From Chthonomonadales bacterium (GTDB lineage: Bacteria > Armatimonadota > Chthonomonadetes > Chthonomonadales > CAJBBX01): DNA of 64,000 nucleotides. Below, in pieces: positions 1,830 through 64,000 of this stretch. The stretch covers positions 8,308 through 72,307 of the forward strand of contig JABWBA010000006.1 in assembly GCA_013360745.1 (NCBI GenBank). The letters run 5' to 3'. A program made the translations under genes and the position numbers. The notes below the pieces were generated by a model that was given only the letters and a program-made list of their open reading frames with translations, made no database searches and was not told the origin of the DNA. Position 1 is the stretch's first letter, and every line of letters starts with the position of its first letter.

Positions 1830-1893
1830 GGTATCCGCGCCCGCCGTCGAATACTCTGCAGACGTTTCGCGCTCTTACCTAATCGAGGAGACT

Positions 1894-3192
1894 ATGATGG
1901 ATACCGAACCGACGATGACCCGCCGCCAGCTTGTCCAGAGGGGTGTGGCTCTCGCCGCCGCCTCCGCCGTTGCCGCGCCAGCCGTTGGCCGCAGCTCTGC
2001 CCAGGCAGGACCGAATGCTGCTCTGGGGGTGGGGTTCATCGGCTGCGGCGGTCGCGCCGGCTCCCATATGCAGACGCTCCACTGGCTCGCAACGGATGGC
2101 GGAGAGAAGCTGCGCCTCGCGGCATTCTGCGATGTCTACGCCCCGAGACTCCGGCGGGCGGCCGAGGCGTACGGGAGCACGCGCACCTACGCCGATTACC
2201 GTCAGCTGATCGAAGATCCCGAGGTCGATATCGTCTGCATTGCCACTCCTGATCACCTTCATGCGCCTCAGGCCATCGCCGCGCTGAAGGCCAACAAGCA
2301 TGTCTATGTGGAAAAGCCGATCACGCACTGGCGCCAGATTGGCCTGCTGAAGGAGCTTGCCCGAGCGGCGGCCGTGTCCGGAGGCGTTCTCCAATGCGGT
2401 ACGCAGGGGATGAGCTGCTCGGCGTGGGAGCAGGCCCGACAGCTCATCGCCGACGGCGCCATCGGCCAGCCGATCCACGCGGAAGCGGGGTATTTCCGGG
2501 TTGGCGACTGGGGCGAACGGGGCATGCCCGTGGATGATCCGAACGTTCAGCCCGGCCCCGAGCTCGATTGGAAGGCGTTTCTCGGCGATTCGCCATCCAG
2601 GCCCTTCAGCGTCGATCGTTTCTTCCGGTGGCGGCTGTTCATGGACTACGCCGGCGGACCGGTGACCGATCTCTATCCCCACGCGTTCACGCCGGTCGTC
2701 CATATGCTGGGTGTGACGTTTCCGTCGTCTGTCGTCGCCAGCGGCGGCATCTATCGTTATCCCTATGAGCTTCGCGAGGTTCCCGACACCTTCAACCTGC
2801 TCATCGACTACCCGGAAAAGATCACCGTCGCGCTGATGGGCACTCAGGGGAACAACCACTTCGGCACAGGCGACGCCCCCGTGGGCTCGGTGGGCCGGTC
2901 GCCGGTCCTTCGAGGGTGGGATGGCACGCTGACCTTCGTCGGACGCAACATCGTCATCACGCCCACGGAGGGATCGACCAGGAAGCCGGTAACCGTCCCT
3001 GTCCGGACCGGCGAGGACCTGGTCGAGTTCTGGAAGTCCCTTCTGAACGTTGTCCGCACAGGCCAGGGGGCGCCCGCCAGCCCCATGCCGCTCGCGTACG
3101 CAACCCAGACGGCACTGCTGATGGGCATGGCCGCCTGGAGATCCGGCAGGACGGCTCGGTTCGATCGTCGCACCGAGCGGATCGTGGTCTGA
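1894..3192 (+). CDS. Gfo/Idh/MocA-family oxidoreductase with twin-arginine (Tat) signal
   Basis: Same frame as ORF 1546..3192. I moved the start to ATG 1894, which follows GAGGAG at 1885-1890. N-terminus is MMDTEPTMTRRQLVQRGVALAAASAVAAPAV (RR signal), followed by the Rossmann motif LGVGFIGCGGRAG. Confidence 0.8.
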   Translation: MMDTEPTMTRRQLVQRGVALAAASAVAAPAVGRSSAQAGPNAALGVGFIGCGGRAGSHMQTLHWLATDGGEKLRLAAFCDVYAPRLRRAAEAYGSTRTYADYRQLIEDPEVDIVCIATPDHLHAPQAIAALKANKHVYVEKPITHWRQIGLLKELARAAAVSGGVLQCGTQGMSCSAWEQARQLIADGAIGQPIHAEAGYFRVGDWGERGMPVDDPNVQPGPELDWKAFLGDSPSRPFSVDRFFRWRLFMDYAGGPVTDLYPHAFTPVVHMLGVTFPSSVVASGGIYRYPYELREVPDTFNLLIDYPEKITVALMGTQGNNHFGTGDAPVGSVGRSPVLRGWDGTLTFVGRNIVITPTEGSTRKPVTVPVRTGEDLVEFWKSLLNVVRTGQGAPASPMPLAYATQTALLMGMAAWRSGRTARFDRRTERIVV

Positions 3193-3376
3193 GAACGCTG
3201 GGGATGGCTTGCGCGGAGGATCGAGCGCGCGCCGAACCGATGCGCCCCTCGTATCGATCTCAGAGGAAGGTAACAGACCGCCGGAGGGCGAACGATAACG
3301 ACGAGCGCGTTCGGGGAACGGGCAGCGGTTCGGATGGCCCCGGAACGAGCTCTGGACGCTACAGGAAGGTAGTCGC

Positions 3377-4135
3377 GTGACAACCTGTGTCCTTACCCCT
3401 GCCGCGGGCAAACGGCTGATCGCGAAGGCGATGGCGATCCATCCCGTGATCCAGCGGGCGCTGACGGAAGGCACGCTCGTGATCGTCGCCGGAACGACGA
3501 ACGGGTATGTCGCCGAGGAAATCCTCGGATCCCTCGGCATCGCAGAGGGCTTCGATAAACGACGATTCCGGAGAGGGGTGACGCTGCCACCCGGCTACAC
3601 GCCTCCGGCCGAGATCGCTCAGGAACCGTTCCCGGGCGATATCGTGCTGGTGCGGGGCGAATGGCAGCGAGGGCGGTCGATCTTCGATATGGTCGAGGAG
3701 CTCGGTGAGGGTGATGTCGTGCTCAAGGGCGCGAGCGCGTTGCACCTCGCGAGTCGCTCGGCCGGGGTGTTCATCGGCGATACCAGGGGCGGTACGACCG
3801 CCGCTATGATGCAATCGGTAATCGGCAGGCGCGTTCGGCTCATCGTACCGGTCGGCCTGGAGAAACGGGTCTCGGACGATGTGTTCGAGATTGCCCGCAC
3901 CCTGATACGGCCTGGAGTTCGCGGCCCCCGCCTCTTCCCGCTCCTCGGCGATGTGGTGAGCGAGATCGAGGCGGTGTCCATGCTGACCGGCGCGAGCGCC
4001 CGACTGCTCGGCGCGGGCGGCGTCTGCGGCGCCGAAGGGAGCGTCTGGCTAGGGATCTCCGGTTCGCCGGAAGAGCGGGCCGCGGCGGAGGCTCTGCTGA
4101 AAGCGGTGGCCGAGGAGCCGCCCTATCGGGACTGA
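3377..4135 (+). CDS. hypothetical protein (family not recognised)
   Basis: 252-aa ORF with a GTG start preceded by AGGAAGG (3363-3369). It is co-directional with its neighbours. The segments KGASALHLASRSAGVFIGDTRGG and RLIVPVGLEKRV weakly resemble LUD/LutC-type folds, but this is unverified. Confidence 0.55.
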   Translation: MTTCVLTPAAGKRLIAKAMAIHPVIQRALTEGTLVIVAGTTNGYVAEEILGSLGIAEGFDKRRFRRGVTLPPGYTPPAEIAQEPFPGDIVLVRGEWQRGRSIFDMVEELGEGDVVLKGASALHLASRSAGVFIGDTRGGTTAAMMQSVIGRRVRLIVPVGLEKRVSDDVFEIARTLIRPGVRGPRLFPLLGDVVSEIEAVSMLTGASARLLGAGGVCGAEGSVWLGISGSPEERAAAEALLKAVAEEPPYRD

Positions 4136-4187: not shown

Positions 4188-7040
4188 GTGATGGGTCGGA
4201 GCATACTCTGTGTCGGAGCCGTACTCGCTGCGTCAACGGCGGCGATGCTCGAGGCCCGATCGGGCCCGTCGCCCTGCACGCTCCGCGTGGCGCCGTCGGG
4301 CAGCCTCAGCATTCGGTTCGGTCGGAACATCGTCGGGACGATGGAGCCGGGCCTGCATGACGCCTCATGGCGTCTTTCCACGATCCTGCCTGTTCGGACC
4401 CCGTCCGATCCGAAGACCGGGGCGTTGACCAGCCAGATCCGAATGCAGGACGGGACCGCCTGCGAAACGGAGACGACGATCCGGCAGGACGGCTCATCGG
4501 CCACAGCCGTCTATCGAATCACACCCCGCGAGCCGGTAAAGCTCCACAGCCTGCATGTGGCGCTGGAGATCCCGACGAGCGTTCTGGCCGGCGGCGTCTA
4601 TGTCGCGGACGGCGTGGAAGGGGCGTTCCCCGAGCAGTACGGAGAGATGATCGTCCGAATCGCGCCAACCAGAGACCTGACCCTTCGGACGAAGCTCGGT
4701 GAGGAGCTTCGGTTACAGTTCGCCGAACCGATCATGACTCTGCTACAGGATAACCGCCAGTGGGGGCCGAGCTTCACCGTCCGTATCGGCCCGCAGATGG
4801 ACGCCATCGAGCCGTGGCCCGCGGGCAAGCCGCTGGAGATGCACATCACGCTGACCTCGCCAGGAGGTGTCAAAGTGGAACAGGATGGCCCGGTGACCCT
4901 TGAGGCAGGCGCCGACTGGATTCCTCTCGATGATACGCTCGAGATCGAGCCTGGATCGGCGCTGGACCTCAGCAGCGTCCTACCGTGGCACGCTCCCGCG
5001 GGCAGTCTGGGCCGGGTGATCCCGATCGCCGGCGGCCGATACGCCTTCGCCAAACGGCCCGGTGAGGCTGTGCGCTTCTACGGCATCAATCTGTGCTTCA
5101 GCGCCCAATACCTCAGCCACGAGGAATCGGATCGCCTTGCCCGGCGATTGCGGATGCTCGGCTACAACGCCGTGCGATTCCATCACTACGAATCGGAGCT
5201 CGTGGATCGTTCGAACGGCGATGGCCTCACCCTTCGTCCGGACCGACTGGACCAGCTTGATTACCTGTTCGCCGCCTTGAAGAAGCAGGGCATCTATATG
5301 ACCACCGACCTCTTCGTCTCCCGGCCGATCCGCGCGGCCTCGATCTGGCCCGGGGAGACGGGCGATGCAGGGATGGACGAGTTCAAGATGGCCGTGCCGG
5401 TCAATGAGCGGGCCTTCGCCAACTTCCGCGCGTTCGCCGAGAAGCTTCTCGGGCACGTGAACCCGTATACGGGCGCGACGTGGGGCAGGGATCCGGCCCT
5501 GGCCTGGCTCAGCCTGATCAACGAAGGGAATCCCGGCAACTTCATCGGGAATCTAACGCCCCGGCTCCGGGCGGATTGGATCCGCGCATGGCGCGAATGG
5601 CTGACGCGTGCCTACCCGGATGAAGCCCGACGCCGCGAGGCGCTGGGCGGCGTCGCTGATTCCTTCCCGCCTTCGGGTGAGAAGGCCGAACTCGTGTTCG
5701 CCAAGTTCCTCGCGGAGAACCAGCGGAGCTTGCTCAGCCGGAGCCGGGCGTTTCTGAAGGGGCTTCCATGTTCGGCGTACTTGACGAACATGAACTCATG
5801 GACCAACCCGATCCAGATGATGGCGGTTCGGAACGATATGGACTATGTGGACGATCACTTCTATGTCGACCACCCCGAGTTCGTCGAGCGTCCGTGGCAG
5901 CTGCCCTCTCGATGCCCGAACACGAGCCCTGTGGCGGCCGGAGCGCGGGGCGGCCTCGGCTGCGCCTCACTGCGCGTGTTCGGCAAGCCCTTTACCGTGA
6001 GCGAGTACAACTACTCGGGGCCCGGGCGTTTCCGTGGTGTGGGGGGCATCCTGACCGGCGCCCTTGGCTCGATTCAAGATTGGTCGGTCCTCTGGCGGTT
6101 TGCCTATTCCCATTCGCGCGAGAACCTCTTCCGCCCCGGGGCTATGAACTACTTCGACATGGTCTCGGACCCGCTCAATCAGGCGGCCGAACGTGCTTCG
6201 GTGTTTATGTTCCGGCGGGGCGATCTGGCGCCGGCGCGCAACGCGATTGAGATTGTCGCGACCGAGGCGGATCTTCTCGGTCGCCCTGCGTCCTCCCGCA
6301 GCGCAACGCCGAGCTGGAACGGGCTCGCATGGGTGGCGCGCATCGGCTACGCGTCGGCGCCGGCGAAATCCGACGATCCGCGCCGGATCGCGCTGCCGCT
6401 GGGATGGGCCGATCCGGCGACGGCGGCCGGACGGGTTGCGGATCCATTCGCAACCGATGCCGCCGACACCATTCTTGCGGAGATGCGTCGGAGGAGCTGG
6501 CTGCCGGCTGCGAATCGAACCTCGTTGGACGGACCCGTGTACCAGACCGAGAAGGGAGAGCTGACGATCGACGCGCCCCGCGATACGCTGACGATCGACA
6601 CGGCCCGTACCGCGGGCGGGTATGCACCGGAAGGGGAGCGGATCGCCGCGAAGAGCGTCGAGATCTCCATAGTGAAAACAGACGCAACGGTCTGGGTATC
6701 GAGCCTCGACGACAAACCGATCGGGACGAGCCGCCGGCTGCTGATCACCCACCTGACCGATGTGCAGAACAGCGGCGTGCGCTATGGCGATCGAGATCGG
6801 CGGCTGCTCCTCGACTGGGGCGGTATGCCCCATCTGGCATTGGACGGCGCGGCGAGCGTCACGATCCGATTGCGGGATGCTTCGAAGGCCCGAGTCTGGT
6901 CGCTCGCGCTCAACGGCAAGCGTCTCGCGCCCGTCTCGTGCAAGGTCGCTGGCGGCAGCCTTATCGTCCCGCTGCAGGTGAACCATGAGGGCAGGGCACG
7001 CATGCTGTACGAAGTGCAGATACCGCCTCCAGCGCGGTGA
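4188..7040 (+). CDS. secreted putative clan GH-A (TIM-barrel) glycoside hydrolase, 950 aa
   Basis: N-terminal signal-like MMGRSILCVGAVLAASTAAM. The segment FYGINLCF...LGYNAVRFHHYE...QGIYMTTDLF resembles a GH5-like barrel. LSLINEGNPG is a candidate acid/base NE motif and FTVSEYNYSG a candidate nucleophile Glu. A GGGAGGGGAGGA SD lies upstream. Confidence 0.55.
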   Translation: MMGRSILCVGAVLAASTAAMLEARSGPSPCTLRVAPSGSLSIRFGRNIVGTMEPGLHDASWRLSTILPVRTPSDPKTGALTSQIRMQDGTACETETTIRQDGSSATAVYRITPREPVKLHSLHVALEIPTSVLAGGVYVADGVEGAFPEQYGEMIVRIAPTRDLTLRTKLGEELRLQFAEPIMTLLQDNRQWGPSFTVRIGPQMDAIEPWPAGKPLEMHITLTSPGGVKVEQDGPVTLEAGADWIPLDDTLEIEPGSALDLSSVLPWHAPAGSLGRVIPIAGGRYAFAKRPGEAVRFYGINLCFSAQYLSHEESDRLARRLRMLGYNAVRFHHYESELVDRSNGDGLTLRPDRLDQLDYLFAALKKQGIYMTTDLFVSRPIRAASIWPGETGDAGMDEFKMAVPVNERAFANFRAFAEKLLGHVNPYTGATWGRDPALAWLSLINEGNPGNFIGNLTPRLRADWIRAWREWLTRAYPDEARRREALGGVADSFPPSGEKAELVFAKFLAENQRSLLSRSRAFLKGLPCSAYLTNMNSWTNPIQMMAVRNDMDYVDDHFYVDHPEFVERPWQLPSRCPNTSPVAAGARGGLGCASLRVFGKPFTVSEYNYSGPGRFRGVGGILTGALGSIQDWSVLWRFAYSHSRENLFRPGAMNYFDMVSDPLNQAAERASVFMFRRGDLAPARNAIEIVATEADLLGRPASSRSATPSWNGLAWVARIGYASAPAKSDDPRRIALPLGWADPATAAGRVADPFATDAADTILAEMRRRSWLPAANRTSLDGPVYQTEKGELTIDAPRDTLTIDTARTAGGYAPEGERIAAKSVEISIVKTDATVWVSSLDDKPIGTSRRLLITHLTDVQNSGVRYGDRDRRLLLDWGGMPHLALDGAASVTIRLRDASKARVWSLALNGKRLAPVSCKVAGGSLIVPLQVNHEGRARMLYEVQIPPPAR

Positions 7041-40055: not shown

Positions 40056-41117
40056 TCATTTCTGATAGATCGGCAGGAGTCCCGCCGGCACCTGAAGGCA
40101 CAGGACCCCCATGGCGGTAGCGTACTCGTCACCCGGGTTATCGGTCCAGTGGCCGTCCTTTGCCTGACTGTCGACCAGCCGGGCCCGGAGGGCGGTAAAC
40201 CATGTTTTCCAATCTTTGCCGCCGACCTGATAGAAGGCCTGGGAGCAATAGTAGAGCGCGTAAAAGTAGTGCTCCCGGTAGGCCCATTCATACTTGTCCA
40301 GCGGGTGTTGAACGAGGTAGGTGATCCCGTTCCGACATTCCTTCGACCGGGACTCGCCGCACAGATACAGGCACAACACGGCCGCGCCCGTTCTGGCAGG
40401 ACCCGAGCTATGAGTCGTCGTCTGATAGCTGAAGCCGAGATCGGAGTTGTTCTGGCATTTCTTGATGTATCGGACCGCCTTCCGAATGGTCTCGGGCGGA
40501 ACCTTGAACCCGGCGTTGGCGGCCGCTCGCAGCGCAACGACCTGGACGACGGTCACCGAGATATCCGCATCGGTGGCCTGCGGCTGGTATCGCCAGCCCC
40601 CTTCCGGATTTTGCGTCTGTACGGTCAGGCGTATCGCCCGCTCGATTCGAGGGCGGAGGTCGTTGCGCTGGGTCATGCCATATAGCTCTGCCAGAGCCAG
40701 GACGGCGAAGCCATGCCCGTACATAGGCGGGCCGGAGCTGCCCCCTCGAAACGCCAGTCCGTTGCGCTGCACGGTCTCGGCCAGCCAGTCGACCGCGCGG
40801 GCCAGAATCCTGCCGTATTTGCCTCTTCCGGGCTGATGGCCCGCCGAAAGGAACGCGAGGGCAGCGAGGCCGGTTACCGCCGCATCGGCGTTGTACTGAG
40901 CGCTGTTCCAGTGGCCATCGGTCTGAGCCCGGGAAGCGAGGAATGTGAGCGCCTTCTCCACGGCGGCTTCAGAAGCGGGTGTGCCCAGGTATTCACGGGC
41001 TTCCACGTCGAACGGGTCTTTGCGCTGAGCGGCGCCTGACACGGCCATGGCGCCGGCCGCTGCGGAGCTGATGGCCCGGATCGCTTCACGGCGCGTCCAG
41101 CCGGTCCGTCGGCTCAT
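40056..41117 (-). CDS. Tat-signal prenyltransferase/squalene-cyclase-repeat (alpha/alpha-toroid) protein
   Basis: 353 aa. Tat signal SRRTGWTRREAIRAISSAAAGAMAV. QW-like repeats appear as TDGHWNS, NPEGGWRYQ and KDGHWTD. Its ATG overlaps the DUF4175 stop (ATGA at 41114-41117). Confidence 0.7.
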   Translation of the reverse strand: MSRRTGWTRREAIRAISSAAAGAMAVSGAAQRKDPFDVEAREYLGTPASEAAVEKALTFLASRAQTDGHWNSAQYNADAAVTGLAALAFLSAGHQPGRGKYGRILARAVDWLAETVQRNGLAFRGGSSGPPMYGHGFAVLALAELYGMTQRNDLRPRIERAIRLTVQTQNPEGGWRYQPQATDADISVTVVQVVALRAAANAGFKVPPETIRKAVRYIKKCQNNSDLGFSYQTTTHSSGPARTGAAVLCLYLCGESRSKECRNGITYLVQHPLDKYEWAYREHYFYALYYCSQAFYQVGGKDWKTWFTALRARLVDSQAKDGHWTDNPGDEYATAMGVLCLQVPAGLLPIYQK

Positions 41118-44100
41118 TTCCGCTCCGACAGAGCGCGATAGTAACGGCTCACGAGGTCCCGGTACTCGATCGGCACCTGGTCGAGCTTGCCCTGACCCAT
41201 CAGCTGTTGCTCACGCAGGCTGAGCGGGCCGAAGCGATACGCTCCGGCGGCGAGGTTGCGCACGGGCCCCGGCCGGGCCGTGACGATGGGAGCCGTTCCG
41301 CGAGTCGGTTCGCCATTGCGGCTGATCTGCCGGCGCGAGCCGTTGGGCGATGGTGTGGAACGGCGTGCCGCCGCGGCCAGCTGCTCCCGGTTCTTTGAGA
41401 GGATCGTATCGAGCCCCTGGACGATGGCGGATTGCTGCCGCTGGATCGGCGAGGCGGTGTTGCTGGCCCGGATCCCCTTTTCGATCGGGGTGATGTCCTC
41501 TGCGATCGCGTTCAGGCGGGCGCTCTCCGAGACGGCCTCGCGGGCGTCATTGGCGAGATTTCGGAGGCCGTTCTGGATCTCCCGTTCGCCATCCGCGATC
41601 CGATGGAGCTCTTGTCGTTCCGTATCGTTGAGCCCTCGGTCGGCCCGGCCCGAGCGCAACGTCTCCAACGTCGACGTTTCGGCATGGAACTGCGCCTGCA
41701 TCTCCCGTAGCGCCCGGAGCTCGCCGGCGCGATTGGCCAGCTGATGCTCGGGACTATCCCGTTCGCCTGCCTGTCGCTGCAGAGCGGCGGTTCGCTCGGC
41801 CTGACCCAGCGCTTCGGCGAGCCGCTCCAGTGTTCGAGCGCTGTTGGCCTGGGCCCGCTGGGTCGCCGCGCCGGTGTCCTGGCGCCACAGGGCGTGCGCC
41901 GCGTCGCTCATTCGCTGGAGGGCCTGATAACCCATCCACTTCATCACATTGGATGACAACTCTTCCGTCGCTCCGCGCAGGCGTTCGTTCAGCTTATCCT
42001 GCGCTGCGGCAAGCTGGTGGGCGCCCTTCTGAGCCTCGGCTTTGTCTTTACCCGCCGAGGCTTTGTGCTCGACGCCGGTTCTGCCCGCCAGCGCGCGCTG
42101 ATCCCTCGCCACTGCCTCGACGGCTGTGCGGGCTTCAAGGGCGGCGGCCTGCGTCTGCAGAAGCCGGGCGGCTTCGCGGGCCTCCATCGCGGCCTGCAGG
42201 AGATCGCGCGTGGCCTGACGAGCGGGGCCCCTGGCGTCGCTCGCGGACCCTTTGCCGAGCGATTCGGCGGCGCTGCGCATCGACCGGGACGCTCGCCGGG
42301 CGGAATCCTGAGCCCCGGGCGCCTGGGCGAGTTCAGGGATGATCCGGGCAAGATCGCCCTCGACGCGCCTCTGCTCGGCTGCCGCTTTGTCCGCTGTCGG
42401 TTTGTCCGTTGCCCCCTCGACCGTCCGCTGAACGGCGCGCTGCCGATTCGACAGCTCCTGCAAGGCGTCGGCCGCCCGTTCCACTGCGTCCGCCGCACGG
42501 TCCAATCCCTCGGGTGAGGACGCGGCGTTCGACGGATCCATCAGATCGGAGGCGAGGCGCTCCAGAGCGCTGGCGCTGCGACTCTGGAGGGTTCGAGCGT
42601 CGGTGAGGTTGCCCTCCGCGAGTTTCCTGCGCGCTTCTGCCTGCGCGGTGGGCGTGTTGGATCCGGCAAACGCGCGGGCGGCGTTCTTCACTGACGGATC
42701 GGCGGCGGCATCGGCCGCCGCGCTCAGGCGGTCGGCCAGAGCGAGCGTTCGCTCGTTCAGATCGGCCTGAGCTCGGGCGAGATCCTGTGCGGCGCCCCGC
42801 GGCGCGGCCTGCGACCGGTCGGCGAGCCGCCGCTGTTCCGCCGCCAGGGTATCGGCTTCGCGGGCGAGCTCGTTGGGAGAGGCTGGCGCGGAGCTGCGAT
42901 TCGCGATACGCTCCAGGCTCCGACGAACGTCGGTGGCAATCTCGGACGCCCGGCCGGTTGCACCGTTTCTCGCCGCAGCGGCGGCCTCGGGCATCTTGCG
43001 GTTTGCGATATTCCGCAGTTCATCGGCAAGCGCGTCGCTGGCGGCGCGATCCTGAGGAGAGGCGAGCTGATTGACCCGCAGCATGTCGGCGGTTCGGGTT
43101 ACGCTCTGACGTACCGCCTCCGCCTCACGCGCCAGCTCCATCTGGCGATCGGCTTGCGCAGCCGCGGTTTGGCGATCTGCCGACCGTAGCGCCATCTCGA
43201 TCTTCCGCTCATCGCCTGCGAGGTTACGCAGGCGCTCGACCTGCTCCCTCCGGGCCTGCGCCGCCCTTTCGAGGACTTCGCTGACGCTGATGATGCGCAC
43301 CCGTCGTTCCGTAGACCGCCCGGTATGCGGGCCGCTAATCGTGTCTTCGTCTTCGGCCTCGGCGTAATAGGTCACTGTGTCTCCCGGTACGACCTTCAGA
43401 GCCGAGAGGTTCAATGTGGCGCGGGCTGCCGCCTGGCCCGGTTGCTGGCCGCGGATGAGAGACAGCGGGGTGCGGCCGGATGATCCCGCCCGGCTATGGG
43501 CCAGCCGCATCGCGCCGATACCGTAATCATCGGTCGCATGCGCCTCAATATCGATGACCCCCGTGGGTGCGCGCTCGAGATCACCGGCAGGCTCTACGAT
43601 GTGGACGGTCGGGGTTCGATCACGGATCACGCGGACGGAGTAGATCGGCTCCGGCTCGGCGGCGAAGCCGTACCGATCTTCAAGGCTGAGGCGGAGGGCG
43701 CCGTCATCGACCAGCGACACCGTGCCCTCGGCGCGCTCCTCCGTGACCGCGAGCGGTGTCGGCGGATGGCCGACGCGCTGCAGTATGGCGCGGCGCAGCG
43801 CTTTACTGGCGGTGAACTCGATGTGCGCCCGGGAGCCGGCTGGGGCGGCCACGTTCGCGCTGCTCGCGTCGACGGTCGTGGGCGCCTTGCGCATGTAGTC
43901 GGGATAGGTCAGAGTGATCCGTACAGCGCGGACCACCGGGCGATCTTCAACGCGAATCCGGTATTGATTGGAGCGGCCGTCCCCGCCGGCAGCGTAATAG
44001 AGGGTGTCTTCGAAGACCCGGGTCAGGCGGGTTGTGTACGCAGGGCGACCGTTGCTCTGTGTCGTCCGTTTCAGCCGGAGATCCCTCCACGCTCCCGTTC

Positions 44101-44782
44101 CTGAACGCGTATGGAGTCGTGCGCTTGTCGGCACAACCCCTGACGGGAGCGCCGTGACGAGGACATCCGCGCCTCGAGGTATCACACGGTCGCCAGGAGC
44201 AACCCTCCAGCGGGTCGCCGCCCAGATCGGGATATCGGCGTAGGGATGGATGATACGGCTCATCCATGTCACGAGGCCCAGGGGCGTCAGAGCGGCCTCA
44301 AGGAGCAGCGGGGCGCATCCGAGCATACAGTAGAGCCCAGCGCGGCGCCGCCGGCCGCCGGGTACCGCGCTTGCGAGGTCGAGGCCCTCCGTTCTGGCCC
44401 GGGCCTCGCGCAGCACCGCGTCGACGAGGTCGGAATCGTCCTCAGCGCGGGCCTTGCCGATCTCGACTGCCGTCAACAGCCGTTCGTTCAGCGCGGGAAA
44501 CCGGGCTTCAGCCCATCCCGCCAGGACCGTGTCCGTTCGGTGACGCAGCCGGGGGAGGAGCGCAATCACGCCAACGCCTCCCAGCGCCGCTGCGGCCAGG
44601 AGCAGCTGGGAGGCAAGGCGAAGCGCAGACGTGCCGACGATGGCCCTGTCCAGGCGATACAACGCCCAGATCAACAGCGCGAGTGACCCGAGCGTATAGA
44701 GGGTCGCGGCAGTCAGGACCACGCTGCGATCTCGTCGCCGTGCCCGGTCCAGTCCTGGATATAGAAGATCAGAGCCCGTCAT
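41114..44782 (-). CDS. DUF4175-type large membrane protein with very long Ala/Arg/Gln/Glu-rich helical region
   Basis: 1222 aa. N-terminal TM segments (VVLTAATLYTLGSLALLIWAL, LLLAAAALGGVGVIALL). An Ig-like middle region is followed by several hundred residues of low-complexity helix. C-terminal LDQVPIEYRDLVSRYYRALSERK is a DUF4175-like ending (from memory). Confidence 0.65.
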   Translation of the reverse strand: MTGSDLLYPGLDRARRRDRSVVLTAATLYTLGSLALLIWALYRLDRAIVGTSALRLASQLLLAAAALGGVGVIALLPRLRHRTDTVLAGWAEARFPALNERLLTAVEIGKARAEDDSDLVDAVLREARARTEGLDLASAVPGGRRRRAGLYCMLGCAPLLLEAALTPLGLVTWMSRIIHPYADIPIWAATRWRVAPGDRVIPRGADVLVTALPSGVVPTSARLHTRSGTGAWRDLRLKRTTQSNGRPAYTTRLTRVFEDTLYYAAGGDGRSNQYRIRVEDRPVVRAVRITLTYPDYMRKAPTTVDASSANVAAPAGSRAHIEFTASKALRRAILQRVGHPPTPLAVTEERAEGTVSLVDDGALRLSLEDRYGFAAEPEPIYSVRVIRDRTPTVHIVEPAGDLERAPTGVIDIEAHATDDYGIGAMRLAHSRAGSSGRTPLSLIRGQQPGQAAARATLNLSALKVVPGDTVTYYAEAEDEDTISGPHTGRSTERRVRIISVSEVLERAAQARREQVERLRNLAGDERKIEMALRSADRQTAAAQADRQMELAREAEAVRQSVTRTADMLRVNQLASPQDRAASDALADELRNIANRKMPEAAAAARNGATGRASEIATDVRRSLERIANRSSAPASPNELAREADTLAAEQRRLADRSQAAPRGAAQDLARAQADLNERTLALADRLSAAADAAADPSVKNAARAFAGSNTPTAQAEARRKLAEGNLTDARTLQSRSASALERLASDLMDPSNAASSPEGLDRAADAVERAADALQELSNRQRAVQRTVEGATDKPTADKAAAEQRRVEGDLARIIPELAQAPGAQDSARRASRSMRSAAESLGKGSASDARGPARQATRDLLQAAMEAREAARLLQTQAAALEARTAVEAVARDQRALAGRTGVEHKASAGKDKAEAQKGAHQLAAAQDKLNERLRGATEELSSNVMKWMGYQALQRMSDAAHALWRQDTGAATQRAQANSARTLERLAEALGQAERTAALQRQAGERDSPEHQLANRAGELRALREMQAQFHAETSTLETLRSGRADRGLNDTERQELHRIADGEREIQNGLRNLANDAREAVSESARLNAIAEDITPIEKGIRASNTASPIQRQQSAIVQGLDTILSKNREQLAAAARRSTPSPNGSRRQISRNGEPTRGTAPIVTARPGPVRNLAAGAYRFGPLSLREQQLMGQGKLDQVPIEYRDLVSRYYRALSERK

Positions 44783-57678: not shown

Positions 57679-59963
<2,285 letters not shown>

Positions 59964-59967
<4 letters not shown>

Positions 59968-62900
59968 AACCGCAGTCCGAGATCGGCATCGAGAGAGCGG
60001 ACGTGATAACTGTAATCGCCCGAGGTCGCGGAGCCCCTGGCGGTGTAGCGCTGATCCCGCAATCCGATCTGAAACACCGTGTTGTTGCCGAGATCGAAGG
60101 CAAGTCCGAGGCTCATCGTACTCTGGGTTGAGGCAAGGTAACCGGTGCTGTCGGCTGTATCCCACTGGTAATAGAGGTTGCTGGCGATCCATACCGGGTA
60201 CTCCAGGCGGAGGCCGTAGCTGGTCAGGTTGGCGCTGCCGCTTCCGAAATAGCCCCCGTAGCCTCCGCCGTAGTAGCCCCCTCCAGGCAGACCCGTAGTC
60301 GGCGGCGTCTGGGAGCTGGCGGTTCTCGTGTTGGAGCGCATGAAGTTGGCGTTGAAGCTGGTGATGAGTTTGCCCAGGGGGCGGGCCTGCGCGTTGAGAT
60401 AAAAGGTCGCGGTGTTCGTTCCTCCCGTACTGCCCACATAGGATACATCCTGCAACATCGCGCCGCCGACCAGGGATAGGCGCTCGCCCGGATTGTAGTT
60501 GGCGCTGAAGGCGAGACCCGACCGCTTGCTGTTGAAGAGGTAGTCTCCGATGCTGGCGCCGGACATATAGGTCAGATCCAGACTCAACGTTGGCCATGGT
60601 TGATAGTTGATGGCGACGTTCAAACCCCGGGAGTTGCCTCCAAAACTCGCCGAGCCCATGCCGTAGAGGCCTCCGCCGAGCCCGCCGCTGTAGTTGCCGT
60701 AGCCGCCGAGCCCGCCGTTGACGCCGCCGCCATAGTAGCCGCCGATCCCGCCAATCGGCTGGCCCGTACCGCCATAGTAGCCTCCGGTTCCTCCAGTCTG
60801 GCGCGTTGCCAGTGTGCCCGTCTGGCCGGAGGCGCCGGAATAGTCGGTGTAGCCATTGAATATGGAGTAACCGCCCGAGGTCTGGTAGGAATATCCCAGG
60901 TTGAGGGTCATGTTCTTCATCGGCAGCGAACGGATGTTGAACGTAACGTCCTGGGCCGTGTTACTCTTGCCGCCGACGCTCTTGATAATGCTGTTCGTAA
61001 CCATCGCATCGAACGAAAGGCGTTCGCCGAGCCTCCATTTAGCAGCAAGACGGGCATTCACGGAGTTGCTGCCGTAGGTGGACGGTTGGGTAGTGCTGCC
61101 GCTGCCCAGATTGAACACGGCCGATGTCATCGCGGATTGCCGCGCGAGTGAGGCGTCGATGGAGAACTGCCCGAGGCTCTGTTGATACGCCAGCGTTTCG
61201 GTTGTGTGGGTCGAGCGGCCGCCGCTGCCCAGTCGCGTTCGCATATCGTTATGGTTCAGACTGAGGGTGCCCGTCTTGCCAATCTGCCACAGCGCCCGGA
61301 GGGAGAACTGATTGTAGTCGTCCATGCCGACACTGTCGGCGAGGCCCCCGGACGATCCGGATAGATAGCTGTAGGCTGGCCGGCGCATCTTCTCCATCGT
61401 CGCCGTGAGCTTCACGCCAGCGGCCGGCTGATAGTCGGCGTTCAGAGACAGGCCTCGATCGTTGCGCCGAAAGCCCGGACTCTGGACAGCAGTGAAGTTG
61501 GAGCCGATGTTCTTCAGGGTCCAGTTCAGCTTCAGCCGATCTCTGGCGAACTTCATGTCGCTTCGGATCTGCCAGGCGCTGGCCGATGCGCCGTTGCCGG
61601 AGAGGCTCAGCGAACTCCGCGCCATCTCCGCTGTGATGGTGCCGATCTTGCCCAGGCTGCCCGTCGCGTCCAGCGCGATGATGGATCGATCGCCGGACGA
61701 TTGATCGCTTCGCGCCGGGGTGTAGACGATCTTGATGATCTGCGTGCTGGGAATGGCCATCTTGAAATAGACCCGATTGGGCAGGAGCGGGTCGAGTACA
61801 TAATCGGTGCCGTAGAGTTGAGGGAGACCGCTGACGGTCACGGTCATGGGCGTGACCGGCGTACAGCCCGTGATCTTCCCCTCCGCGTCCCTGATCAGGG
61901 TTACCTCGACCGGAAGATCCAGCACATACGGCGTCGTCGCGCTGTTGTATCCGTAGAACTGTTCTGTCTTGGTCCTCGTGTTGGCCGAACCGCCGTTCGC
62001 CATCTGATTCAGATAGGTGACGCCGAAGCGAACGGGCTTCCACTGGGTCAGATCGGCACGCCAGCCGGTCAACATCCCCGGTGACTGGTTGTATCCGTAG
62101 GTCTCAAACGTGATCGCGATGGTATCGAGTTCACCGACGATCATACCGTTGAGGAAGTTGAGTTCGCCGGTGAACGGGTCGAGAGTGTAGTCCTGGCCGA
62201 GAAGCAGCTCGCGGTTATTAATGCGGACCCGGGCGCTGCCGTCCACGACCTGACCGGCGAAGACGTAGTAGGGGCCCGATCGGTTGGCGCCGTTGATCAC
62301 GATGGTCCGCGTTTGCGCTCGCTCCTCGCTGTACAGGGCGCTGACTTTGACCCCCGGGGCGACGTTCGTCGTCAGTGAGATCCCCTGAAGCGAGCGGCTG
62401 AAATCGACGAGCGAGTTGCCCATGATGCCGCCCTGAATGTGGCCGGCCTCGACGGCGAAGGTTTTATTGGCATAGCTCAACTTCAGGCGATTGTCATAGG
62501 GCATGCCGTACATGCTATTGCTGTAGCGTGTCTCAAACGTGAGCAGACCGAGCACCTTACCGGTAATCGTCAGGTCCGTGTCCGTATAGCCGCCCATGCC
62601 GCGCCGTCCGTAGTAACTGGCGTTGTCATAGGACGCTCGACTGCCGCCGATGCTCTCCATGTGGTACCGGATGTTGTGCTGCCCGTTGATCTTGATGTCG
62701 GACCGGGTCCTCTTGCCGAGGTTCTGCATCCAACCCTGCAGGGTGTCGAGAATCTTGAAGGGGAGGCGAAAGCCCTTTCGGCGTACGCCCACCGCGGGGG
62801 CGCCTGGTTGCCCCGAAGGGTCCTCCGGAATCGCCACAATGGGGCCATCCGATCGGGAAGAGGTACGGAGCAAGGCATCCCAGAGCGTCTCGTCGGCCCT

Positions 62901-63095
62901 CGAGGGCTGCACGTCCGCAGGCGTCGTCGGCGCCGTTTGCGGCCTGGTCGATACCGGCTGGCCGCTCTTCAGCAGGGCGTCCCAGAGCGTTTCATCCGAC
63001 CGTGCAGCCGCGTTGGCCGAGACGACCGCGAGCGCCAACACCATCAACCGGCTCAGGGCCGATGCTGTCGCCAGGCGATGCGCGAGTCTCGCCAT
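59964..63095 (-). CDS. very large outer-membrane beta-barrel-type protein (family not recognised)
   Basis: 1043 aa. Signal peptide RLMVLALAVVSANAAA. There are long stretches with alternating polar/hydrophobic residues rich in Y, G, S, T and N. The C-terminal DADLGLRF ends in Phe, the usual BAM-substrate signature. Confidence 0.7.
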
Positions 63096-63109
63096 CCCAT
63101 TGCCGTTGT

Positions 63110-64000
63110 TCAGTGGACGCCACTCCCCGCGGCCGCCGCCGCCATCGCGACGTTTTCTGCGGCCGATTGTCTGAGATACGTTAGTTTGTCGCCGATCCGT
63201 TGCAGTATGGACTCACGATCGGCCAATCCCGTCAGCGCTCGCGAGACCACAACGTCGGCGTCGAGGGCATCGAGGTCGATTCGGTAGTCCTCGAGCCCGA
63301 GGGCGCGCATCGTCGCGGTTACCTTGGGATCGTACGCGATGGCGGTGGGGGCTGTACTGCAGACGGCGCTCAGGATGATCGCGTGCAGGCGCATCCCGAT
63401 GAGACCCTCCACGCCGTGAATAGCCTGCAAGGCCGCCTGCGGATCGCCGGCTGTGTCGACAATGGAATCGGACAGCCCCTGCAGCGTCTCGGCGCAGACC
63501 GGCGCGTCGAGGGGCGGGTGCATGGCGATGCCGATAAGGCCGATCCCGGCTGCCGACAGCTTCTGCGCGATCGGTCGGCACGCCCGGGCGATGTCTCTAT
63601 CGTGCCACGGTCGGAGCGCGAATCCGATCGTGGGTCGCTCCCGCGGCTCGGGCCTCGGTTGCGGCGCATCAAGGGCGTAGGCCGGATCCGCAGTTACCCT
63701 GATCCGGTCCGTGGCTATGCCGAGATCGCGGAGAAGCTCGGCGGAAGCCTCGTCCCGGACCGTGATCGCTGCCGACCGATTGGCTGCGTTGTAGACGATG
63801 CGGCGGGAGATGGACCGGCGCAAGGGTCCTATGCCCTGAGCGCAGAGCATATAAGGCCGCTTGAGGGCACGGGCCTTCCGCATGATCCATGCGTAGTACA
63901 GCAGGGATCTCAGGCTGGTCGTATCCTGCAGCAGGCTGCCGCCGCCCGAGATCAGGAGATCCGATGCAGCGATGGCGCTGCTGACCGCCCTCATGTTCCA
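63110..64000 (-). CDS. csaB: polysaccharide pyruvyl transferase CsaB (N-terminus beyond the window)
   Basis: The frame is open to position 64000, and the track's Met at 63994 is internal. Contains DLLISGGGSLLQDTTSLRSLLYYAWIMRKARALKRPYMLCAQGIGPL and MRLHAIILSAVCSTAPTAIAYDPKV, matching the CsaB family. Confidence 0.85.
   Translation of the reverse strand, partial: WNMRAVSSAIAASDLLISGGGSLLQDTTSLRSLLYYAWIMRKARALKRPYMLCAQGIGPLRRSISRRIVYNAANRSAAITVRDEASAELLRDLGIATDRIRVTADPAYALDAPQPRPEPRERPTIGFALRPWHDRDIARACRPIAQKLSAAGIGLIGIAMHPPLDAPVCAETLQGLSDSIVDTAGDPQAALQAIHGVEGLIGMRLHAIILSAVCSTAPTAIAYDPKVTATMRALGLEDYRIDLDALDADVVVSRALTGLADRESILQRIGDKLTYLRQSAAENVAMAAAAAGSGVH

Follow-up and report, generated by a model that had tools for sequence, protein, structure and literature searches.

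What role brings the gene for a giant outer-membrane protein to stand directly behind csaB, the gene for the polysaccharide pyruvyl transferase, in a member of the Armatimonadota? The question is raised by a 64,000-nucleotide stretch of Chthonomonadales DNA (contig JABWBA010000006.1, positions 8,308 to 72,307; hereafter the window). The original prediction, made from this DNA, had placed csaB immediately upstream of a barrel protein, here called OMP (outer-membrane protein), and had proposed that this barrel ties the outer membrane to pyruvylated cell-wall polymer through an N-terminal module other than SLH. In diderm Terrabacteria, pyruvylated polymer is the ligand of the SLH domains of OmpM and SlpA, and mutants in csaB show the phenotype of mutants in the tether; the role known for CsaB in these bacteria is outer-membrane tethering through SLH. 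This tethering architecture underpins models of the diderm-to-monoderm transition and is now explained by SLH plus a barrel (OmpM/SlpA), the two-part system of the Thermotogae being the sole variant. We find that the OMP belongs to an undescribed family whose genes often stand behind csaB across deep divergence, and we consider a functional coupling between the protein and the pyruvyl-polymer pathway likely. As to its task, we tentatively put first a reading in which the OMP is both the barrel half of a two-part tether to the SLH/pyruvyl-polymer system and a channel.

The csaB-OMP gene pair and the OMP family

Both edges of the gene pair were reproduced from the DNA: csaB ends at 63110 and the OMP gene starts at 63095 on the same strand, leaving a spacer of 14 nucleotides (nt) in which promoter-like and terminator-like sites were looked for and none found. 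The window end cuts csaB, and the fragment within the window covers positions 54-292 only of the CsaB profile, scoring 203.2 bits against TIGR03609 as a truncated sequence. DNA beyond the window was taken from contig JAANMY010000024.1 (L001) of the Chthonomonadales metagenome-assembled genome (MAG) GCA_013328875.1, of which the window is a reverse-oriented part. The full-length csaB on this parent contig (355 amino acids, aa) scores 266.5 bits, and the TIGR03609 equivalog cutoff is 213.1. Judged by these profile scores, the upstream gene is a bona fide CsaB.

For the OMP itself, the open reading frame (ORF) and the homologue alignment agree on a protein of 1043 aa with a signal peptide, as first described, and on a conserved C-terminal end. 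The NCBI annotation starts the gene 17 codons downstream (window 63044 vs 63095), which yields 1026 aa, widens the gap to csaB to 65 nt and would leave the signal peptide without its positively charged n-region. We prefer the 1043-aa start because orthologues retain this charged n-region.

A word-indexed search returned 47 OMP homologues, with E-values down to 0, all of them unannotated. Their named sources are Armatimonadota/Chthonomonadales, the exception being a partial one that bears the label Verrucomicrobia. When 1.84 billion representatives were searched in full with a profile, 1003 proteins came up at E<=1e-3, of which 216 reached E<=1e-30. Most of the 1003 are about 850 aa long and lack the N-terminal extension; in 15 inspected sequences, Pro/Ala-rich extensions included, no SLH was seen by eye. 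Additionally, a scan of GTDB species genomes with one peptide pattern gave 34 loci, one per genome, the named ones being Chthonomonadales, Chthonomonadaceae or Armatimonadota, and the OMP is a core, apparently single-copy gene. With 47 homologues and a gene order kept down to about 30% identity, the OMP is not a chance ORF, and the family is real. Keyword searches found no paper on this family, nor one linking SprA to Armatimonadota. The family is undescribed and is so far found only in Armatimonadota-named genomes and unnamed metagenomic contigs, barring the partial Verrucomicrobia-labelled sequence.

On the parent contig the gene order is rhomboid, DUF5693, csaB, OMP. The DUF5693-csaB-OMP unit was present in all five loci reached by protein look-up (the source contig, L004, L006, L007 and L008), at OMP identities down to 28%. 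Across the GTDB loci, csaB lies directly upstream of the OMP in 19 of the 28 that are informative (six of the 34 were too short), and it is missing from nine in which 5.8 kb or more of upstream sequence is available. In a neighbour-joining tree the unlinked loci all fall in clade B, which also holds the linked loci L006, L031, L037 and L039; linkage is universal in clade A wherever it can be judged, and the outgroups L045 and L007 are linked. Because the outgroups and both clades hold linked members, the csaB-OMP linkage is ancestral and was lost several times. The outgroup L045, an unclassified Armatimonadota MAG, encodes DUF5693, csaB and an OMP of 968 aa whose identity over the full length is 30%. 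Five more distant members were sampled, three of them csaB-linked (P0073, P0110 and P0111) and two unlinked (P0088 and P0189). The complete rhomboid-DUF5693-csaB-OMP block occurs in P0073 and P0110, and in P0111 the csaB-OMP pair is preceded by TPR proteins. The adjacency on which the original prediction leaned is thus conserved, in 19 of 28 species loci and three of five distant members.

A metagenome scan for DUF5693 found csaB as the following gene in 66 of 79 loci, and in P0243 one protein is a DUF5693-CsaB fusion. The family OMP comes next in nine of the 39 DUF5693-csaB loci with enough downstream sequence; elsewhere the genes after csaB are CarboxypepD_reg, TamB, MurJ, LptC/LptD_N-like or T2SS-F. 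Because csaB follows in 66 of 79 loci and the OMP in nine of 39, gene order suggests that DUF5693-csaB is a core pair that tends to sit among outer-membrane-biogenesis genes, the giant barrel having been added in some lineages only. A confident AlphaFold2 model of DUF5693 (pLDDT, the predicted score in the local distance difference test, 90) has an N-terminal transmembrane helix, a TIM-like alpha/beta domain and 9-10 transmembrane helices. A Foldseek search with this model gave no significant match, only weak TIM-barrel-like ones; its profile found no relative among PDB sequences, and no paper mentioning DUF5693 was found. We flag it as what is probably an unstudied, near-obligatory partner of CsaB.

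Several further features of the gene neighbourhoods were recorded. In clade A, and also in two distant lineages, a rhomboid protease gene immediately precedes DUF5693-csaB-OMP and completes a conserved four-gene block (L001:6107-6847; also L004, L009-L011, L014, L015, L022, L023, L046 and L127). In L055, L064, L082, L089, L109, L073, L110 and L125, none of which has the giant barrel after csaB, the next gene encodes a 500-620-aa CarboxypepD_reg protein, TamB, MurJ or an Lpt-like jellyroll protein. In two distant loci, L127 (8914-14490) and L043 (12903-19116), the OMP is followed by a conserved, Pfam-less protein of about 900 aa, at least one CarboxypepD_reg protein and a jellyroll protein of the LptC/LptD_N type. 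The jellyroll proteins of these distant clusters measure 450-625 aa, and the cluster occurs also at L047:10362-12695. Neither the window nor the Chthonomonadales loci contain genes for the ~900-aa, CarboxypepD_reg and LptC-like proteins.

Architecture, fold and conservation of the OMP

The window OMP matched no Pfam family at E<=1, its homologues likewise carry no Pfam domain, and the OMP family profile found no relative among PDB sequences. An AlphaFold2 run on a 36-sequence alignment produced a model of moderate quality (pLDDT 70; predicted template modelling score, pTM, 0.55). Strand count and topology were read from DSSP order and loop-length parity, without coordinates, and the resulting number of about 32 beta-strands, seven before an insert and 25 after it, is approximate. 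The OMP is accordingly predicted, and not placed by homology, as a very large outer-membrane beta-barrel of some 32 strands, the large barrel that had been supposed from the letters. All predicted periplasmic turns are 2-5 residues long, the long loops and the insert lie outside, and both termini are placed in the periplasm. As short periplasmic turns and long outer loops are the classical pattern of outer-membrane proteins, this topology supports the assignment.

Foldseek against the PDB with this model returned outer-membrane barrels only. The best E-values belong to SlpA chains of D. radiodurans (8agd, 7zgx and 8ae1; 2e-11 to 1e-10, template modelling (TM) scores 0.25-0.30), followed by MtrB, then SprA, then LptD and TonB-dependent transporters; SprA has the highest query-normalised TM-score, 0.40. 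These matches indicate a giant barrel, not membership in any of the matched families. At the sequence level, OMP aa 279-364 match positions 600-686 of the SprA model TIGR04189 (2.7e-7, 28.2 bits over 86 residues; cutoff 200), and 27 of the 36 family members match the same part of that model (positions about 595-690; best 2.3e-11). EpsL (TIGR03014) is matched in barrel hairpins (~aa 510-710) by five of the 36, the best at 9.6e-11 and 41.3 bits with a cutoff of 275, and the window OMP itself has no EpsL match. All SprA and EpsL matches in the family are far under the cutoffs (28-41 bits vs 200 and 275).

Three known barrel types were considered as identities for the OMP and rejected. A T9SS (type IX secretion system) SprA/Sov protein, a kind of barrel that exceeds 2000 aa, was discarded on the 28.2 bits over 86 residues and on finding no T9SS families in the neighbourhoods inspected. 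The window protein and the 36 members have no LptD_N or LptD/OstA_C match in Pfam, which disposes of LptD. A TonB-dependent transporter was likewise rejected, there being no plug (PF07715) or TonB_dep_Rec match and Foldseek TM-scores of 0.15-0.19. The D/E-T-L... residues of the N-terminal motif may resemble a TonB box.

The predicted signal peptide has a charged n-region (R3, H6 and R7), a hydrophobic core and an A-N-A cleavage motif (MARLAHRLATASALSRLMVLALAVVSANA, then AARSDE). Between it and the first strand, the model has just two periplasmic elements, a motif-bearing tail and a short pre-barrel helix. Because every periplasmic turn is only 2-5 residues long, this N-terminal region is the sole possible periplasmic contact. 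The pre-barrel helix (aa 114-130) has 17 residues with a/d-like spacing and is the only such helix before strand 1. No SLH domain was found in this region: Pfam detected none (PF00395) at E<=1 in the 36 aligned members, and a profile of 21 mature tails compared with an SLH-protein profile (hhalign) reached a probability of 0.13%. The lack of SLH noted in the original prediction thus holds, and these more sensitive profile searches detected no degenerate copy either.

The tail varies from about 55 to about 210 aa among orthologues. Directly after the signal peptide, nearly all Chthonomonadales orthologues carry the motif [DE]-[TS]-[LIV]-W-[DE]-x-[LM]. The window OMP has it twice as DETLWDALL, the two copies differing by five synonymous and no non-synonymous changes in 27 nt; since the differences are synonymous only, both copies are under selection. 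In other lineages the copy number is 1-4, and the motif is specific, 47 of its 49 matches in a 746-kb six-frame translation falling in OMP N-termini. Beyond Chthonomonadales the Trp is lost, for example as SRLEELL in L045. Short csaB-linked homologues (L046, L063, L065 and L122) have no tail and only about 12 residues before strand 1, their mature N-terminus being a Trp-containing helix that abuts this strand (ESLWHRVDDRL, RRWLENNLL, EAWLDWLN). From these N-termini, the tail motif looks like an ancestral N-terminal helix shifted onto a flexible linker. Because csaB-linked homologues exist without it, the tail cannot be a general csaB-related module.

Two further observations concern the tail. 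The 34-residue spacing of the motif recurs in L015, an unrelated lineage with four copies. The clade-B orthologues (P0038-P0046) have a second linear motif, LGP[VI]PGF[TS]LP, between the TLWDxL motif and the pre-barrel helix, and it is confined to the clade where csaB linkage is often lost.

Conservation was scored as the majority fraction per column, and 107 OMP positions are at least 90% conserved. Outer loops and the insert hold 58 of these, the outer halves of strands 29, the periplasmic halves 13, periplasmic turns two and the N-terminal region five. The most conserved block is aa 269-365 of the insert, with a mean majority fraction of 0.71.

Table 1. Features of the csaB-OMP locus. Positions are those of the window unless a contig is named.
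Feature	Position	Strand	Basis or remark
csaB, 3' part, 296 codons (polysaccharide pyruvyl transferase)	63110..64000	-	PF04230 2.5e-31, TIGR03609 5.5e-60
csaB-OMP spacer, 14 nt, ACAACGGCAATGGG	63096..63109	-	Read from sequence
Giant outer-membrane beta-barrel protein (OMP, predicted), 1043 aa	59964..63095	-	ORF, homologues, AlphaFold2 model, Foldseek
Predicted Sec signal peptide, aa 1-29	63009..63095	-	Sequence inspection and orthologue N-termini
Predicted disordered, Pro-rich periplasmic tail, aa 30-113	62757..63008	-	pLDDT <50 except helix 37-43
Motif copy 1, DETLWDALL, aa 34-42, mature N-terminus	62970..62996	-	W38, D39 and L41 conserved to 90% or more
Motif copy 2, DETLWDALL, aa 68-76, 34 aa after copy 1	62868..62894	-	Peptide identical to copy 1
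Amphipathic pre-barrel helix (predicted), aa 114-130, KILDTLQGWMQNLGKRT	62706..62756	-	AlphaFold2 helix; column block conserved across the family
Predicted barrel strands 1-7, aa 133-268	62292..62699	-	DSSP of AlphaFold2 model
Predicted beta-rich insert, extracellular or lumenal, aa 269-468	61692..62291	-	Conservation and SprA-like match
Predicted barrel strands 8-32, aa 469-1043	59967..61691	-	AlphaFold2 and DSSP
Predicted disordered Gly/Tyr-rich outer loop, aa 740-819	60639-60878	-	AlphaFold2
Predicted disordered Gly/Tyr-rich outer loop, aa 926-952	60240-60320	-	AlphaFold2
C-terminal beta-signal (beta-barrel assembly machinery, BAM, type), last 10 residues	59967-59996	-	F1043 invariant in 36/36 sequences
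SH3b and NlpC/P60 peptidoglycan endopeptidase gene	59134..59967	+	PF00877 1.2e-22, SH3_16/SH3_3
DUF5693 (PF18949), immediately upstream of csaB	L001:6896-8860		Parent contig, outside the window

The gene beyond the OMP 3' end encodes an NlpC/P60 endopeptidase (PF00877, 80.3 bits, gathering cutoff 23) with SH3b domains. The 4-nt overlap with the OMP stop that had been claimed for it stands; its orientation, given earlier as divergent, is convergent (tail to tail). This gene adjoins the OMP in about seven related loci, all in clade A. As a neighbour in some clade-A relatives only, and not a core one, it was rejected as a component of the system. Elsewhere in the window, three large ORFs lack a Pfam match at E<=1e-3, at 4188-7040 (+), 41114-44782 (-) and 1879-3540 (-), with 950, 1222 and 553 aa, respectively. 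The DNA is about 63% GC, and some of them may be shadow ORFs.

Candidate roles of the OMP

If the OMP is the barrel half of a two-part tether, it would be expressed together with the machinery for pyruvylation of the secondary cell-wall polymer and would form the outer-membrane half of the link, as barrels without SLH do alongside the SLH-bearing Omp-alpha in Thermotogae. On its flexible tail, the N-terminal Trp-helix would dock to a periplasmic partner. This partner would most plausibly be a stand-alone SLH protein bound to the pyruvylated polymer, direct polymer binding by the OMP being less likely. The conserved barrel and its cap would provide a channel, much as in OmpM, which is described as both tether and channel (PMC10628300).

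A published survey reported that CsaB and SLH co-occur with OmpM and that OmpM homologues exist in Armatimonadetes. Its supplementary table lists no OmpM, OmpA, Pal or Lpp for C. calidirosea T49 but two SLH proteins and one CsaB, and a MAG assigned to C. calidirosea (L010) carries the DUF5693-csaB-OMP unit. Because none of the four known tethers is listed for T49 and the csaB linkage extends across deep divergence, the OMP family offers a concrete candidate for the missing outer-membrane partner in this cultivable organism. The two-part tether fits because of the canonical role of CsaB, the missing tether of T49, the SlpA-like layout of the OMP and the precedent in Thermotogae. In its favour, too, are the close and ancestral linkage to csaB, the confinement of periplasmic contact to the N-terminus, and a motif that is specific to this protein and whose two copies differ at synonymous sites only.

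Several findings weigh against the OMP acting as such a tether. The tail that would do the docking is predicted to be disordered, is the least conserved region of the mature OMP (mean majority fraction 0.25) and is missing from the short csaB-linked homologues. The insert and the extracellular side account for 87 of the 107 most conserved residues. For SlpA, the barrel is reported as that protein's most divergent part, so that the pattern in the OMP, with barrel and insert conserved and the periplasmic part variable, is reversed. The nine unlinked loci keep the motif amid unrelated neighbours (phosphoglucomutase, M3 peptidase, FHA/PP2C, BNR), and 30 of the 39 DUF5693-csaB pairs are not followed by the OMP. 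The survey table also lists OmpM of about 630-650 aa in two Chthonomonas MAGs, which means that a replacement tether is not required everywhere. A search for SLH genes near the operon in 1.59 Mb of related loci (regular expression, tblastn and iterated hidden Markov model) found two SLH-bearing ORFs only, none in Chthonomonadales loci: one in L044, the other a fragment of 99 aa that lies at an end of L122, a csaB-OMP locus. Similarly, no adaptor gene adjoining the OMP was found in the related loci. A search seeded with an Armatimonadota-type SLH protein gave five hits and affords no view of the SLH/OmpM proteins of Chthonomonadales. Lastly, the tether role is predicted from sequence, synteny and a structural model whose scores are moderate.

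The SLH gene in L044 (L044:4398-4958) encodes a 186-aa stand-alone protein with a signal peptide or transmembrane segment, one SLH domain (TRYE) and a tail of about 100 aa. It adjoins mreB and murA and lies 5 kb from a DUF5693-csaB pair without a giant barrel. It exemplifies the kind of adaptor that a two-part tether would need.

A close rival, in our judgement only slightly less probable, is a translocon in which the OMP would be the outer-membrane end of an envelope-spanning path that delivers pyruvylated glycan or glycolipid, or anchored cargo, to or through the outer membrane. DUF5693 would be its inner-membrane component, CsaB a cytoplasmic modifier and the OMP an LptD-like or SprA-like barrel, with a separate periplasmic partner and the Trp-helix as a docking element or plug. 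The operon logic suits this arrangement, joining a multi-transmembrane inner-membrane protein, a modifying enzyme and an outer-membrane barrel, and so does conservation concentrated on the extracellular/lumenal side. The likeness to SprA (27 of 36 members; TM 0.40) and to EpsL (five of 36) points the same way, yet the scores behind these matches lie far below the cutoffs. The LptC/LptD_N jellyroll, ~900-aa and CarboxypepD_reg proteins in the distant L127 and L043 clusters also favour export, as do an Lpt-like jellyroll gene directly after csaB in L125, two TPR proteins ahead of csaB-OMP in L047 and a Wzy_C/O-antigen-ligase-family gene 6 kb upstream in the source contig. However, the Lpt-like and ~900-aa genes do not occur in the window or in the Chthonomonadales loci, the OMP has no periplasmic bridging domain, 30 of 39 DUF5693-csaB pairs do without the OMP, and the TamB, MurJ and Lpt neighbours may reflect a general outer-membrane gene cluster. 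CsaB-type polymers are known as wall-linked periplasmic ligands for SLH, and their export to the outer membrane is not known. If a translocon were nonetheless the answer, there would be a diderm in which pyruvylated glycans arrive at the outer membrane or cell surface, and SprA-like barrels would extend beyond the FCB (Fibrobacteres-Chlorobi-Bacteroidetes) group. The two-part tether and the translocon each explain about half of the data.

We regard it as unlikely that the OMP has no specific link to csaB and serves Armatimonadota as a major general porin or a structural protein of the outer membrane, its gene sitting in a conserved envelope neighbourhood. The nine unlinked species loci, where protein and motif are unchanged among unrelated neighbours, would be expected of such a protein, as would the two unlinked members among the five distant ones. 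The genes beside csaB elsewhere are assorted envelope genes, and the Foldseek likeness is generic to large barrels (TM 0.15-0.40). Against this stands the recurrence of the same order and strand across subfamilies at ~25-33% identity, often as the whole rhomboid-DUF5693-csaB-OMP block, which inertia alone would hardly account for over such divergence.

The direct form of the tether, as first proposed, makes the N-terminal motif region a new lectin-like module that binds the pyruvylated polymer, and this we consider improbable. The region is the sole periplasmic part of the OMP, its conserved Trp and acidic residue occur in 1-4 copies that might add avidity, and both motif copies are under purifying selection. 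However, an 84-residue disordered and variable tail with an amphipathic helix of 7-9 residues has the look of protein docking, not of a carbohydrate-binding fold, and a conserved acidic residue is by reasoning an unlikely partner for an anionic pyruvate ketal. The short csaB-linked homologues have about 12 N-terminal residues, the Trp is lost outside Chthonomonadales, conservation lies on the extracellular side, opposite to OmpM/SlpA, and a canonical OmpM occurs in two Chthonomonas MAGs. A translocon role, or docking to a separate adaptor, would be at least an equal fit. That a degenerate SLH domain hides in the N-terminus, making the OMP an ordinary OmpM/SlpA protein, was rejected as next to impossible: Pfam and the profile-profile comparison were negative, the region is predicted to be disordered with 3-4 conserved positions, and no PDB sequence is related.

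Setting the preferred two-part tether beside the translocon, DUF5693, CsaB and the OMP could perhaps make up an envelope system, unrecognised until now, in which the outer membrane is coupled to pyruvylated glycan without SLH in cis, whether as a tether via the Trp-helix or as a split translocon. The OMP family may thus show how Armatimonadota link the outer membrane and the wall, or traffic between them, and should interest researchers concerned with the cell envelope and with the diderm-monoderm transition.

Comparison with known outer-membrane systems

The OMP resembles OmpM of Veillonella and SlpA of D. radiodurans and Thermus in its layout, with a Sec signal, a periplasmic extension, a helix and a very large C-terminal barrel with a beta-signal, and also in its genetic tie to the CsaB pathway and in being a core, apparently single-copy gene. 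SlpA chains head the Foldseek results (E 2e-11), yet the TM-scores are only 0.26-0.30. In contrast to these proteins, the OMP has no N-terminal SLH domain with a TRAE-type motif, no detectable sequence homology to them and apparently no long coiled coil, its helix amounting to 17 residues only.

The two-part system of Thermotogae and Bipolaricaulota pairs SLH-less barrels (Omp-beta, pOMPs) with a separate SLH protein, the SLH-bearing Omp-alpha in Thermotogae, and the Omp-alpha and Omp-beta genes of Bipolaricaulota are reported to have csaB as a neighbour. T49, listed with stand-alone SLH proteins and no OmpM, would suit such a division of labour, any partnership between the OMP and SLH proteins being hypothetical. 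The two systems differ in that no SLH or Omp-alpha-like gene adjoins the OMP, whose barrel is far larger, and in that its N-terminal Trp-helix tail has no counterpart described there.

SprA/Sov, with 36 strands and an extracellular cap, is likewise a giant single-chain barrel, and the insert match and TM-score given above add to the likeness. However, the OMP is less than half its size, no T9SS genes were seen nearby and the host belongs to the Armatimonadota; the T9SS is described as confined to Bacteroidota/FCB. LptD, which joins a beta-jellyroll to a 26-strand barrel, shares the large barrel (Foldseek E ~4e-8), and distant family members cluster with separate LptC/LptD_N jellyroll proteins, whereas the OMP lacks a jellyroll in cis and, in Chthonomonadales, has no jellyroll gene nearby. 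EpsL, a protein of about 385 aa from XrtB/PEP-CTERM exopolysaccharide loci, is like the OMP an outer-membrane barrel of a glycan locus, with a weak hairpin match. Taken with its predicted function, the OMP would best be placed as a variant within a known theme, that of outer-membrane barrels tied to the SLH/CsaB system.

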